From: a virus
Strand: one strand, 5' to 3'
Length of the DNA: 8,389 bases
Virus genome (UHGV): UHGV-1378212
Of this stretch, positions 214 to 8,389 are shown in pieces (positions within the stretch are counted from its first letter, which is position 1; each line of letters begins with the position of its first letter). The translations under genes were made by a program, and so were the position numbers. The notes beneath the pieces were generated by a model. It did no database searches. It saw nothing but the letters and a program-made list of their open reading frames with translations, and had not been told where the DNA came from.

Positions 214-382
214 GAATAAATCCTCAAAATTGCAAAAATGACGACTTACTAACACATGAGTTCAGTAGTTCATTAGTGTTTTAACATTACATCAGTGAGC
301 TAGTGAGTTCAAGAGGCTTGGATGATATGAGTTCATGAGCATGTATACTCACTTCAAATATTGCATTGAACGAGCGTAAAAA
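214..382. promoter_or_regulatory. Divergent control region between gene II (minus) and the plus-strand cassette; contains iterated ATGAGTTCA/GTGAGTTCA motifs; candidate operator and/or plus-strand origin
   Basis: TGAGTTCA at 257-264, 304-311, 328-335 (9-mer ATGAGTTCA exact at 256-264 and 327-335); tandem AGTGAG at 294-299 and 302-307; TATACT -10-like hexamer at 344-349; divergent gene starts at 213 (minus) and 383 (plus). Confidence 0.45.
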
Positions 383-565
383 ATGGCAAAGCGCACGACT
401 TATAACGTGACGGAAGAAAGAAAAATGAAACTAGAACGACTGGCTATAAATGCCAGTGTAAAACTAGGAAAAACAATTACATGGACAGAGATTTTAGGTT
501 ATCTGATTGATAACTACTCTAAAGATGCAGCAGAAGATCTCATGTCTGCCAAACAAAAGGATTAA
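383..565 (+). CDS. Small DNA-binding protein, ribbon-helix-helix (CopG/Arc-like) candidate; possible repressor
   Basis: 60-aa ORF MAKRTTYNVTEERKMKLERLAINASVKLGKTITWTEILGYLIDNY...; N-terminal basic beta-strand (KRTTYNV) followed by two predicted helices with G-x-T at helix-2 start fits RHH pattern; no clear SD (possible leaderless or weak RBS); first gene of a terminated plus-strand operon. Confidence 0.45.
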   Translation: MAKRTTYNVTEERKMKLERLAINASVKLGKTITWTEILGYLIDNYSKDAAEDLMSAKQKD

Positions 566-610
566 GTACCACGAATGGTACAAACGTGCAGTATTACCAA
601 CACTGCACGT
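566..610 (+). promoter_or_regulatory. Two adjacent perfect stem-loops immediately after the RHH gene stop
   Basis: Hairpin 1: GTACCA-cgaa-TGGTAC at 566-581; hairpin 2: ACGTGCAGT-attaccaac-ACTGCACGT at 584-610, followed by T-rich tctagtttgt. Confidence 0.5.
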
Positions 611-680
611 TCTAGTTTGTGCAAAACTTAAACAAAAAGTAAGTCATCGAGATAAACAAAACGAGTCAAAGTATATACTG

Positions 681-821
681 ATGAATACGCCAAAAAAAAG
701 TGAACAAAAACAGAATGATAAGCAACAAGGCTTTGCCCAAGATGGTTTGGACACATCTAAAGCAAAAAGGCTTTTAGAAAAAGCTCAACAATCCACTACT
801 AAACCAACACAAGGAAAGTAA
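681..821 (+). CDS. Hypothetical small hydrophilic protein (46 aa), Lys/Gln-rich; C-terminal motif shared with the next ORF
   Basis: ATG at 681 is the first plausible start after the RHH stop within the 507-821 ORF; stop TAA 819-821 sits 1 nt before the next ATG (823); C-terminal GLDTSKAKRLLEKAQQS resembles GLNTSKASSLLAKIQSQS of the next ORF; no SD seen. Confidence 0.35.
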   Translation: MNTPKKSEQKQNDKQQGFAQDGLDTSKAKRLLEKAQQSTTKPTQGK

Positions 822-822
822 T

Positions 823-1098
823 ATGTTATCTTTTCAGGTTTTCCTTTTTAAAAAAGCATTAGAGGAAGAATTAGATATAATCAAATGGCATCCAACAAAT
901 GAACAATTGGAGGAGATGTTCAATGAGATAAAAAAACTCAGTGGCAATGAAAGCATCACTGAAGTTGAAAATATCGTTCATCGAATTTACAAAAAACCGA
1001 TTACAAGAATGATTTGTAATGGATTGAATACATCGAAAGCAAGTTCGCTATTGGCAAAAATTCAATCCCAGTCAAATAACACTCAACAAAAAAGATAG
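823..1098 (+). CDS. Hypothetical protein (91 aa)
   Basis: ORF MLSFQVFLFKKALEEELDIIKWHPTNEQLEEMFNEIKK...; SD-like AGGAAAG 6 nt upstream of ATG; stop TAG 1096-1098 overlaps the next start (GTG 1098); C-terminal motif paralogous to previous ORF. Confidence 0.55.
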   Translation: MLSFQVFLFKKALEEELDIIKWHPTNEQLEEMFNEIKKLSGNESITEVENIVHRIYKKPITRMICNGLNTSKASSLLAKIQSQSNNTQQKR

Positions 1099-1802
1099 TG
1101 AAATCAGATATGGATGTTCACGGTATCATTGATAATCAAAAAAAAGAAATTGAGCGTTTATATGAAAAATATACTGAGTCATTAGAGTGTTACCTATCTG
1201 GTAAATGTGATTTTGATACCGTGAATTCATGTGGAGACAGTTTTTTCGGCTATTTAGAACACTGCGCTGCACATAACAGAACAGTAGATGAATTAAATAA
1301 TACTCAATGGAATCAATGGCTTGCAGAAACATGCATTGATGTTCTTCACCTTATCTTAGCTCATTACAAAAAATATAGAGAGGTAATGAATGATAATAGT
1401 ATTAAACCAAGCTCCACTGCTTTTGCTTCAATGCAAAGGATAGTAAAAGCCCATGACAAACGTTCTGCAAAAGAAATAAGGAATCTTTTCGTTAATGAAG
1501 ATATGCCAGTATATGGATTTGACAATAAAGGAAAAGAAAAATTGACAAAAGCACACGAGAGAATAGCGGCATTTAGCTTTGGCATTTTACTTGTTATTCT
1601 TTTTATAATAATCGCAATATTTATACCTAATCCAACGAACTTTCAATACACTTTCTTTCGAATAATTCTTTCAGCAGCAGTTGCTGGGGTAGTCTCATTT
1701 ATACCCGGGTTTATAGAAGTCAAAATATCAAACTGGGTAAGAGCAGGTGGAGCATTAGCTGTATTTGTGATTGTCTATTACGTGGCTCCCGCAGCATTAT
1801 GA
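1098..1802 (+). CDS. Hypothetical membrane protein: Cys-rich soluble N-terminal domain (~165 aa) plus three predicted C-terminal transmembrane helices; candidate effector/exclusion protein
   Basis: 234-aa ORF (GTG 1098, alternative ATG 1110); hydrophobic stretches AAFSFGILLVILFIIIAIFIP, FFRIILSAAVAGVVSFIPGFI, AGGALAVFVIVYYVAPAAL at the C-terminus; five Cys in the N-terminal domain; followed by an intrinsic terminator. Confidence 0.6.
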   Translation: MKSDMDVHGIIDNQKKEIERLYEKYTESLECYLSGKCDFDTVNSCGDSFFGYLEHCAAHNRTVDELNNTQWNQWLAETCIDVLHLILAHYKKYREVMNDNSIKPSSTAFASMQRIVKAHDKRSAKEIRNLFVNEDMPVYGFDNKGKEKLTKAHERIAAFSFGILLVILFIIIAIFIPNPTNFQYTFFRIILSAAVAGVVSFIPGFIEVKISNWVRAGGALAVFVIVYYVAPAAL

Positions 1803-1832
1803 ATTGGTTCGCACAATGACGTTATGCTAAAG

Positions 1833-1870
1833 AGGCCGCTGCGGGATTCTATTTTCGCAGCGGCCTTTTC
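1833..1870 (+). terminator. Rho-independent terminator of the plus-strand cassette (possibly bidirectional, between convergent genes)
   Basis: Perfect 11-bp stem AGGCCGCTGCG (1833-1843) / CGCAGCGGCCT (1856-1866), 12-nt loop, followed by TTTT (1867-1870); lies between orf234 stop (1802) and the convergent minus-strand orf77 stop (1938). Confidence 0.75.
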
Positions 1871-1937
1871 AACATAACGAGTCGTACATTATGCGCACCA
1901 ATGGTAAGGATGGTGGGAACTGGCGTTACCGGTGCCG

Positions 1938-2171: not shown

Positions 2172-2244
2172 TTTATCTCCTCGTAATGCTGCCGCGCCGA
2201 ATCAGCAATAACGCTAAAAAAACAGAATTGTTCGGCTTGGCCAA

Positions 2245-2285
2245 CCCCGGACACTAACAAAAGCAAGTTTTGTCACTGTCCGGGG
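2245..2285 (-). other. Stem-loop between orf102 and orf77 (possible terminator/attenuator or single-strand origin hairpin)
   Basis: CCCCGGACA (2245-2253) pairs with TGTCCGGGG (2277-2285); inner ACAAAA/TTTTGT pairing in the loop; a run of seven T on the phage strand lies ~30 nt downstream. Confidence 0.45.
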
Positions 2286-2288
2286 TTA

Positions 2289-7762: not shown

Positions 7763-8342
7763 TTCTATTCTCCCTACATATTCAGAGAATAATTGACGTG
7801 GTGTTTTCATATTCCAGTTAGCGCCAAGCGTTAAATTTAAATCAATAAGCTCAGTTGTTCTTAATGTTAATTCAATACGTAATTTATCTTTCGTCCAGTC
7901 CAGTAACCCGGCTCGTACAAAATCTTCGGCTATCTGGTGCCCTTTTTTACCCGAAACGTGTTCATCATATTTTGAATAAAATTTCAGACTCCATCGACGG
8001 GAGTTTTTACCTAAATAAACTGTACCGCCTTTCCCACATGCGCGACCATGGCGTGTTTTAGCTTTAAATTCGGCGGCATAAAGCCATGATCTGACATTTT
8101 CTAGCGTAGATAATGAATACATGTAATTAATGTCAACACGTGAAATTTTATACTGACCTGCTATAACAGCTTTATAAGACGCTAAATCATGAGGAATATT
8201 CAATAAGGATAAAATCCTGGCATAGACCGTCAACATGAGCCCTTGTATATCATCCGACCCAACAACAGAATGCCCCTGCAAAAACTTGGACGGATTACCA
8301 TCAATGTACAAATGTGTCGCTTTACCTTCGCCATTAGATCCT
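7448..8342 (-). CDS. II: Gene II replication initiation protein, C-terminal segment (continues at 56-213 via circular junction)
   Basis: 287-aa track ORF plus upstream in-frame codons to 8342; C-terminus ...NNVVPLIRTLEAKPVEIPLWIYEKGFIFDYNRIS matches recalled M13 pII C-terminus (NNVVPLVRFINVDFSSQRPDWY); the track start at 8311 is a TTG, not the real start. Confidence 0.9.
8288..8342. repeat. Terminal direct repeat, copy 2 (identical to 1-55)
   Basis: Exact 55-nt match to window start. Confidence 0.9.
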
Positions 8343-8389
8343 GTCTCTTATACACATCTCCGAGCCCACGAGACGTAGAGGAATCTCGT
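8341..8389. other. Sequencing-library adapter read-through (Tn5 mosaic end plus Nextera adapter with an index-like 8-mer), not biological sequence
   Basis: CTGTCTCTTATACACATCT (Tn5 mosaic end) followed by CCGAGCCCACGAGAC, 8 nt GTAGAGGA, then ATCTCGT (start of ATCTCGTATGCCGTCTTCTGCTTG); begins exactly where the terminal repeat stops matching. Confidence 0.9.

Follow-up and report, generated by a model that had tools for sequence, protein, structure and literature searches.

An exchangeable three-gene cargo of a dif-integrating filamentous phage of Escherichia coli as a candidate prophage-borne conflict system

Introduction

CUS-1 of Escherichia coli O18:K1:H7 and YpfPhi of Yersinia pestis are filamentous phages with an inovirus core of ~8.3–8.7 kb and two opposite transcription units. 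In both, a regulator divergent from the replication gene occupies the rstR position, integration at dif occurs in tandem through paired inverted XerC/D sites, two open reading frames (ORFs) of unassigned role lie next to attR, and a variable segment of ORFs, likewise unassigned, lies next to attL and differs between the two phages (PMC4266046). The virus genome UHGV-1378212, an 8,389-nt stretch of DNA that was analysed as a whole and is here called the window, is alike in each of these respects. Its plus strand carries a candidate regulator gene (ORF1) followed by three genes (ORF2–4) that make up an exchangeable cargo, and these three genes are the main subject of this study. Compared by description, the window has three attL-adjacent ORFs, whereas CUS-1 and YpfPhi have two each (PMC4266046).

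The phage type with its divergent unit, the variable attL-adjacent ORFs, the XerCD attP hairpins, and toxin-antitoxin or exclusion genes as inovirus cargo were all previously known (PMC4266046; PMC6813254). No account of the ORF2–4 module was found in the literature on the RefSeq proteins, on CUS-1 and on inovirus defence hotspots, or in the E. coli defence-island survey. We likewise found no earlier account of a three-gene family in which small paralogues accompany an N-terminal domain (N-domain) having interchangeable membrane or hydrolase modules. The same applies to a slot between regulator and attP in dif inoviruses that acts like the hotspots of P2 and P4, shuffling both regulators and cargos. 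Judging from sequence and genomic context, ORF2–4 may be a prophage-borne conflict system serving the lysogen, either by abortive infection or phage exclusion or in a toxin-antitoxin-like manner, a proposition for and against which we see the odds as even.

Phage identity

The window is a circular assembly in which bases 8288–8342 duplicate 1–55 as a terminal overlap, and the true genome length is therefore 8287 bp. Bases 8343–8389 are a Nextera adaptor (CTGTCTCTTATACACATCTCCGAGCCCACGAGAC) with its index (GTAGAGGA), to which the many short hits at the ends of other, unrelated phage entries can be traced. The inovirus core genes (gII/X, gV, gVII/IX, gVIII, gIII, gVI, gI/Zot and the gIV secretin) all lie on the minus strand in canonical order, and two small minus strand ORFs without assigned role follow the secretin. 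Positions 200–2700 are 100% identical to tandem prophages beside hipBA, at the dif locus, in E. coli chromosomes; the strains carrying these identical prophages are mostly human clinical isolates. Matches to single-copy prophages stop at ~1901, adjoining hipA at the same locus. On the basis of the published description of CUS-1 and YpfPhi, the identical dif prophages and the XerC/D sites, we identify the window as the genome, in replicative form, of a temperate filamentous phage of the CUS-1/YpfPhi type, which integrates at dif via the host XerCD.

A first-pass annotation of this DNA had assumed an Ff/IKe-type phage and had regarded genes antisense to the core as an anomaly. Neither view holds. 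A whole-window megablast against the phage collection returned a 189-bp match in gIV to IKe/PEar phages (79% identity to IKe) and the adaptor matches, and nothing else, and the phage is found integrated at dif. Two opposite transcription units are standard in relatives of the CUS-1/YpfPhi type (PMC4266046), and part of the surprise at the antisense genes thus rested on the wrong phage type.

An exchangeable cargo between regulator and attP

The plus strand unit diverges from gene II and consists, in order, of the regulator ORF1, a double hairpin, the exchangeable cargo and the attP hairpin. The segment that is swapped (626–1803) holds ORF2–4, its left edge lying at ~555 or at 626 depending on the comparison: the boundary is at ~555 in E. 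coli F11 and at 625/626 in a Salmonella replicative form. The latter, a 7938-bp ‘plasmid’, belongs to the same phage and is 98.6–99.5% identical to the window; it retains ORF1, the double hairpin (566–612) and everything from 1804 on, and carries 835 bp with a Doc-family gene in place of 626–1803. The cargo is also visibly AT-richer than the phage core, as had been noted at first sight, with a GC content of 33.4% vs 41.3% for the rest of the genome, and no other window of 1178 bp falls below 37.3%.

A survey of 5426 E. coli genomes found the phage backbone (6950–8287) in 55, of which 48 carry it at 99% identity or more, and the ORF2–4 cargo in 22. In close relatives, then, these ORFs are not conserved core genes with a known function. 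Other cargos found behind an identical ORF1 encode a Doc/Fic protein, a 140-aa protein together with a member of the STM4504/CBY_0614 family, or three other unassigned proteins. The Doc-family protein has 244 aa, with the Doc domain at residues 3–116 and a C-terminal extension (loci L007, 6056–6790, and L002, 5067–5801). No separate Phd-like antitoxin gene is annotated beside it, and the protein could represent either a fused or a solitary Doc.

Exchange also affects the regulator. The dif locus of E. coli F11 (NZ_CP076123, 1653736–1673883; L039) is a mixed array of two inovirus backbones with reshuffled regulator/cargo pairs: ORF2–4, identical to those of the window, follow a 148-aa helix-turn-helix (HTH) regulator on a different inovirus backbone, and ORF1 is paired with three other unassigned genes. 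In near-identical backbones ORF1 is kept where the cargo differs. Because ORF1 stays in place during cargo swaps, and because identical ORF2–4 stand behind another HTH regulator in F11, the cassette comprises three genes and not the four, ORF1 included, of the first-pass annotation; its description as an accessory, horizontally exchanged module encoding a membrane protein and small proteins stands. As a separate observation on such arrays, 15 places in the genome of E. coli strain EC5502 match the phage backbone.

A more distant copy is carried by a Pectobacterium inovirus, where the whole ORF1–4 block, at 57, 80, 66 and 53% amino acid identity, lies between gII and an attP-like site (72% nucleotide identity to the window over 681–1580). 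The secretin of this phage is 28% identical, and tblastn gave no match for gII, gV, gVIII, gIII, gVI or gI. The presence of the block in a phage with an unrelated core shows that the regulator can also travel with the cargo.

Conservation of the plus strand genes

All four plus strand frames reported at first (383–565, 681–821, 823–1098 and 1098–1802) are present opposite to the phage core genes, and the Prokaryotic Genome Annotation Pipeline (PGAP) calls four genes there in the identical prophages. The TAA-N-ATG junction between ORF2 and ORF3 is likewise present (819–825). The GTG at 1098, which would overlap the TAG of ORF3, is not the real start; the conserved start of ORF4 is the ATG at 1110, which is the PGAP start and the position where the N-termini of homologues align, and the profile in the PHROG database begins at residue 5.

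Compared with the Pectobacterium homologues, the ratio of nonsynonymous to synonymous substitution rates (dN/dS) amounts to 0.10 (ORF2), 0.06 (ORF3) and 0.16 (ORF4) at a nearly saturated dS, and for ORF1 pN is 0.30 vs a pS of 0.82, with dS saturated. This purifying selection against a diverged copy identifies ORF1–4 as real genes. One could still regard the plus strand ORFs as chance frames that are not expressed, given that neither ORF2 nor ORF4 is preceded by a clear Shine-Dalgarno sequence and that only one promoter-like site is found upstream. Against this stand the low dN/dS values of ORF2–4 (0.06–0.16) at near-saturated dS, the conservation of gene order and gene lengths in an inovirus with an unrelated backbone, the hundreds of diverged homologues and the four PGAP calls, and the conservation data effectively refute the idea of chance frames.

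A widespread three-gene family

ORF4 (1110–1802, plus strand) encodes 230 aa and matches phrog_5814 (E 6e-144). A word-indexed search returned 57 homologues and an exhaustive search 2807 cluster representatives (50% identity) at E≤1e-3, 119 of them at E≤1e-30. None of the homologues returned is from Yersinia. The family is spread among environmental bacteria (Methylobacter, Paraburkholderia, Parazoarcus, soil Pseudomonas and metagenome-assembled genomes) and is also present in a P2-like phage. A 536-bp contig assigned to ‘Paenibacillus tengchongensis’ (NZ_WACP01000076.1, coverage 0.7; L015) is 99% identical to ORF4 of the window; its presence in that assembly is almost certainly due to contaminating enterobacterial or phage DNA.

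With a hidden Markov model (HMM) of the ORF3 family, one to three small paralogues were recognised directly upstream of the ORF4-family gene, in the same orientation, at all loci with upstream sequence but one (L037), for which only 815 bp of upstream sequence is available. The survey covered 24 species from the genome scan, loci from Proteus, Aeromonas and Microbulbifer, the P2-like phage and a hydrolase-fused version of the protein, and it indicates that the canonical system consists of two small paralogues and an N-domain protein. In Pseudomonas inefficax two complete systems of small paralogues and an ORF4-family protein lie less than 4 kb apart (L035, 2609–4181 and 5321–6588).

The family recurs in defence islands and in hotspots of mobile elements, namely the Z/fun locus of P2, inovirus slots, a site next to a prophage integrase, and the vicinity of defence genes. 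In the P2-like phage, a 28%-identical ORF3 and ORF4 pair occupies the slot between the tail-fibre gene G and the sheath gene FI. This is the Z/fun locus, which has been treated as a defence locus (PMC13586616). The system immediately follows the integrase in a Microbulbifer prophage and stands beside nSTAND3 in Proteus, beside OloAB of Olokun in Paraburkholderia, beside HamB of Hachiman in P. sediminis, beside a PifA-like KAP NTPase in P. frederiksbergensis and beside PD-Lambda-1 in Noviherbaspirillum. GajA of Gabija is encoded directly downstream in one Pseudomonas species, and the same layout of a 532-aa and a 406-aa ORF is seen in two more. A summary scan of 98 neighbouring ORFs added AbiJ, PDC-S20, PDC-S73, QatA-like and RmrA-like proteins as well as integrases, transposases and a resolvase. 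Taken together, a known defence gene lies no more than ~4.5 kb away at 8 or more of 23 loci.

Domain architecture of the encoded proteins

An AlphaFold2 model of ORF4 (mean predicted local distance difference test score 80, above 90 in the N-domain) comprises a helical, cytoplasmic N-domain (residues 1–~145), and three transmembrane (TM) helices are predicted to follow at residues 147–171, 177–195 and 207–228 (nt 1548–1622, 1638–1694 and 1728–1793, plus strand). Invariant residues of the family include W67, A72, E73, C75, H85, Q109, R110, P133, Y135, G136 and F137. ORF4 was thus correctly recognised at first as a protein with three C-terminal TM helices, but its description as Cys-rich does not stand, given five Cys in 230 aa of which only C75 is conserved. 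We also rejected a Cys-rich metal site, C75 being the sole conserved Cys.

The two parts of ORF4 occur independently of each other. The 3-TM module of ~85 residues is 50–64% identical between proteins although it is joined to very different partners, among them ankyrin repeats, DUF4019, CHAT and many unassigned domains, and it may be N- or C-terminal. The N-domain, in turn, also occurs in proteins that lack the TM module and have a PGAP1/DUF676-type alpha/beta-hydrolase or Lcl_C in its place. The small proteins accompany the N-domain irrespective of what is joined to its C-terminal side, and the N-domain is therefore their most likely target.

The first-pass annotation took the two small proteins to be paralogous, and a C-terminal GL(D/N)TSKAxxLL motif is indeed common to both. 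ORF3 (823–1098, plus strand, 91 aa), with the motifs W-x-P-T..Q and G-L-(D/N)-(T/N)-S-(K/D)..LL, is the full-length small partner protein and a paralogue of ORF2. ORF2 (681–821, plus strand, 46 aa from the PGAP start; small-protein HMM, E 0.0023) retains only the C-terminal GLDTSKAKRLLEKAQ motif and is a truncated first paralogue. In the Pectobacterium inovirus ORF2 also has 46 aa, is 80% identical and cannot be extended upstream. Longer versions of ORF2 (the 98-aa PHROG version; 98 or 104 aa from starts at 507 or 525) were rejected since the frame is closed upstream in that homologue. Three 91-aa homologues of ORF3 (P0205, P0209 and P0210) bear the NCBI name ‘S-(hydroxymethyl)glutathione dehydrogenase’, an evident annotation error that has spread across E. 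coli, Dickeya and Pectobacterium.

None of the four proteins gave a match above threshold in Pfam, NCBIfam and PADLOC scans, and these scans revealed no recognisable toxin or antitoxin domain in ORF1–4. With PADLOC-DB v2.0.0 the only match to any component was a weak one between the TM region of ORF4 and Csx27 (E 0.006). This hit was rejected as compositional, as were weak hits to a P2 response-regulator-binding domain, ENOD93, RecX and EscR. The 3-TM module matched no Pfam family above threshold, in ORF4 or in 21 module-bearing proteins. A PDB sequence search with alignment profiles of ORF4 and ORF1 gave nothing significant, and the ORF2–4 module matched no solved fold.

Proposed role and alternative explanations

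The first-pass annotation saw in the cassette an architecture of the defence, exclusion or toxin type. Such a role is favoured by the genomic context; the proteins match no family in Pfam, NCBIfam or PADLOC. As no component matches a protein of known function, any mechanism has to be deduced from architecture and context. In the reading that we consider most likely, the N-domain of ORF4 would be bound by the small proteins and thereby kept inactive. When another phage infects, or when the small proteins are lost, ORF4 would be freed and could then damage or depolarise the inner membrane by means of its 3-TM module, for which relatives would substitute a lipase-like hydrolase. In a more far-reaching reading, ORF2–4 would represent a new membrane-acting family of abortive-infection systems, with one to three ~90-aa paralogues as sensors or antitoxins and a modular effector ending in a 3-TM pore or anchor or in a lipase-like hydrolase, and the slot between regulator and attP of dif inoviruses would be a defence or toxin hotspot like those of P2 and P4. 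To this combined reading we assign a probability of roughly 0.4.

Several observations weigh against a conflict system. Some proteins carry the 3-TM module at their N-terminus, ahead of other domains, so that it might serve simply as a membrane anchor of a general kind and not as an effector. No recognised defence neighbour was seen among the individually resolved ORFs of 15 of the 23 loci, and it is by a rough estimate, without matched background, that the figure of at least 8 of 23 lies well above that of a random 9-kb neighbourhood. Finally, ORF2 is shorter than the canonical first paralogue, so that the copy in the window could be partly degenerate; the conservation of a 46-aa ORF2 in a second phage argues against this.

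Alternatively, ORF4 could be a membrane toxin and the small proteins its labile antitoxins, forming an addiction (post-segregational killing) module that stabilises the otherwise unstable replicative form or prophage without blocking other phages. YpfPhi has been described as an unstable extrachromosomal element (PMC4266046), toxin-antitoxin pairs are common as inovirus cargo (PMC6813254), in other phages the slot is taken by a toxin of the Doc, or ‘death-on-curing’, family, and small genes followed at tight spacing by a larger one resemble toxin-antitoxin operons. We nevertheless consider addiction alone unlikely, as the module is also found beside chromosomal Gabija, Hachiman and Olokun and in the Z/fun locus of P2, where a need for plasmid-type stabilisation is not obvious, and as the proteins show no similarity to known toxin or antitoxin families in the Pfam, NCBIfam and PADLOC scans. 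Addiction and defence are, in any case, compatible with each other. ORF4 might also act at the envelope, blocking entry or DNA uptake of phages, related filamentous ones included, without killing the cell. It is a predicted inner-membrane protein, and Z/fun of P2, at the homologous locus, blocks T5. A resident YpfPhi gives partial protection against superinfection (PMC4266046), and Pseudomonas inovirus genes have been shown experimentally to exclude other phages (PMC6813254). The superinfection immunity of YpfPhi cannot, however, depend on ORF2–4, since phages of the same backbone exist without this cargo. The strict need for cytoplasmic small partners, and the replacement of the TM module by a soluble lipase-like hydrolase, both fit a regulated sensor-effector better than a passive block of entry, which makes simple exclusion distinctly unlikely.

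A role unrelated to conflict between phages, as a host-fitness or virulence factor of extraintestinal pathogenic E. coli and Yersinia-type pathogens or as a regulator of phage production, seems more improbable still. CUS-1 and YpfPhi modestly raise fitness in animal models and their prophage-end ORFs have been proposed as candidates for this effect, yet the attenuating CUS-1 mutation lay in puvA, a virion gene outside the cargo region (PMC4266046). The E. coli carriers of ORF2–4 are mostly human clinical isolates; the family, on the other hand, is widespread in environmental bacteria and occurs in a P2-like phage, and the cargo is dispensable for the phage and replaced by others. A conflict system, acting by abortive infection or phage exclusion or in a toxin-antitoxin-like manner, remains the reading of ORF2–4 that we favour, and the consistent context evidence makes the module a good experimental lead with a putative function in defence.

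If ORF2–4 indeed act in defence or abortive infection, they would constitute a new protein family of unusual design, in which mini-protein paralogues accompany an effector with a swappable output module, and its thousands of diverged relatives go unrecognised by PADLOC-DB v2.0.0. XerCD-dependent filamentous prophages of extraintestinal pathogenic E. coli, Salmonella and Klebsiella would then carry a freely recombining hotspot of regulators and cargos. The same reading would offer a concrete candidate for the role of the prophage-end ORFs left open in the YpfPhi/CUS-1 literature since 2002–2014, and a possible reason why unstable phages of this type are kept.

Regulator, attP and remaining features

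ORF1 (383–565, plus strand) encodes 60 aa and matches phrog_2503 (E 4e-34). At least 1000 contigs, of Salmonella, E. coli, Klebsiella and other enterobacterial genera, carry exactly this sequence. ORF1 is a candidate regulator of the phage backbone, at the position that rstR occupies in CTXphi. Its assignment as a ribbon-helix-helix protein agrees with a beta-alpha-alpha pattern with GxT, to which hhalign adds weak support (E 0.055, in the right register) from a comparison with Arc/Mnt/CopG sequences; profile searches gave no Pfam, NCBIfam or PDB sequence match.

The divergent control region (257–349, plus strand) lies in the 170-bp gap between gene II (start at 213, minus strand) and ORF1. 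It contains three exact same-strand repeats of TGAGTTCA at 257, 304 and 328, within 79 bp; the whole window, both strands included, holds only four exact copies, three of them in 257–335. These repeats are candidate operator sites for ORF1. A promoter-like site at 322–349 is the only one upstream of the plus strand unit and may serve as its promoter. A possible leaderless promoter of ORF2, with TATATACT at 672–679 as its -10 element, was rejected because the spacing does not fit. The double hairpin (566–612, plus strand; -20.8 kcal/mol, z -3.8) directly follows the stop codon of ORF1 and is found as an exact copy after ORF1 in phages with different cargo. It is possibly an attenuator or terminator, and it marks the left edge of the cargo slot.

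The attP region (1802–1902, minus strand) consists of two inverted dif-like XerC/XerD sites flanking a GC-rich stem. The first site reads GGTGCGCATAA-TGTACGACTCG-TTATGTTGAAA on the minus strand and the second GGTTCGCACAA-TGACG-TTATGCTAAAG on the plus strand; the XerC arm GGTGCGCATAA equals that of E. coli dif. Since the phage genes have the minus strand as their sense strand, it is this strand that is packaged. As single-stranded DNA it folds here into a 100-nt forked hairpin (-31.2 kcal/mol, z -8.6), with the XerC and XerD arms paired and a bulge in the central region. A folded attP formed from inverted sites has been described for CTXphi and proposed for YpfPhi (PMC4266046). This region belongs to the backbone, being conserved from 1804 on in the Salmonella replicative form, and a diverged form is present in the Pectobacterium inovirus.

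The hairpin at the end of the cargo was at first read as a clean intrinsic terminator (1833–1870). The stem is indeed strong (1830–1874, -30 kcal/mol, z -7.1), but only four U follow, a terminator scan does not call it, and it is the tip of attP. This tip may also terminate the plus strand transcript.

More than 400 enterobacterial plasmids, mostly conjugative, carry ~100-bp copies of the attP hairpin region (window 1798–1913) at 90–95% identity. In the copy on a Klebsiella plasmid (L013, 3001–3098) homology breaks exactly at the XerC arm, and it looks like an integrated remnant, as expected at a plasmid dimer-resolution site.

Beyond attP lie the two small minus strand ORFs, one of 77 aa with two CxxC pairs (1938–2171, phrog_5435) and one of 102 aa (2289–2597, phrog_4115). 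Neither matched a Pfam family, and they are probably the attR-adjacent YPO2280a/YPO2281 of YpfPhi. Between them, a hairpin at 2243–2287 (region 2215–2287, minus strand) has 20-nt arms followed by seven T on the minus strand, and with its surroundings (91 nt) it reaches a folding energy of -35.7 kcal/mol (z -5.6). It is likely a terminator and/or a replication or packaging signal.

Comparison with described systems

A structural match to JukB, the effector of the anti-jumbo-phage system JukAB (PDB 9jht), was set aside at 5% sequence identity; it stood among dozens of generic helical-repeat hits with equal Z, such as designed proteins, domain I of Cry toxins and nucleoporins. The window, moreover, has no JukA-like partner, and the preprint does not call JukB a membrane protein.

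Closer in genomic setting are the toxin-antitoxin and exclusion genes of other inoviruses (PfiAT, KKP and PfsE of Pf4, and the toxin-antitoxin sets of Roux et al. 2019). Like the cargo of the window they are accessory, are not needed for virions and affect the host or competitor phages (PMC6813254). The families are unrelated, and the predicted inovirus toxins listed there are all soluble and of type II/IV, unlike a 3-TM protein with small paralogues (PMC6813254).

In overall architecture the window module resembles lambda RexAB, the TM effectors of CBASS, Pycsar and retrons, and the HAD hydrolase and TM system of P4, all of which combine one or more cytoplasmic partners with an inner-membrane protein on a prophage. 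Two-component abortive infection with a membrane effector has been set out as a general model (PMC9122126), and among relatives of the window family the effector alternates between a TM module and a lipase-like hydrolase. ORF2–4 differ from these systems in sequence and fold, to which they show no similarity, in having neither a nucleotide-signal synthase nor a recognisable sensor domain, and in their partners, which are one to three paralogues of ~85–90 aa.

As for the slot itself, the nearest counterparts are the hotspots of P2-like phages (old/tin and Z/fun) and of P4 (psu-int). The carrier is a different one, a single-stranded DNA inovirus that uses the host XerCD, with the slot located between regulator and attP, and with cargos whose part in defence is putative. 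What the window has in common with P2 and P4 is a fixed slot in which unrelated cassettes interchange between near-identical backbones.

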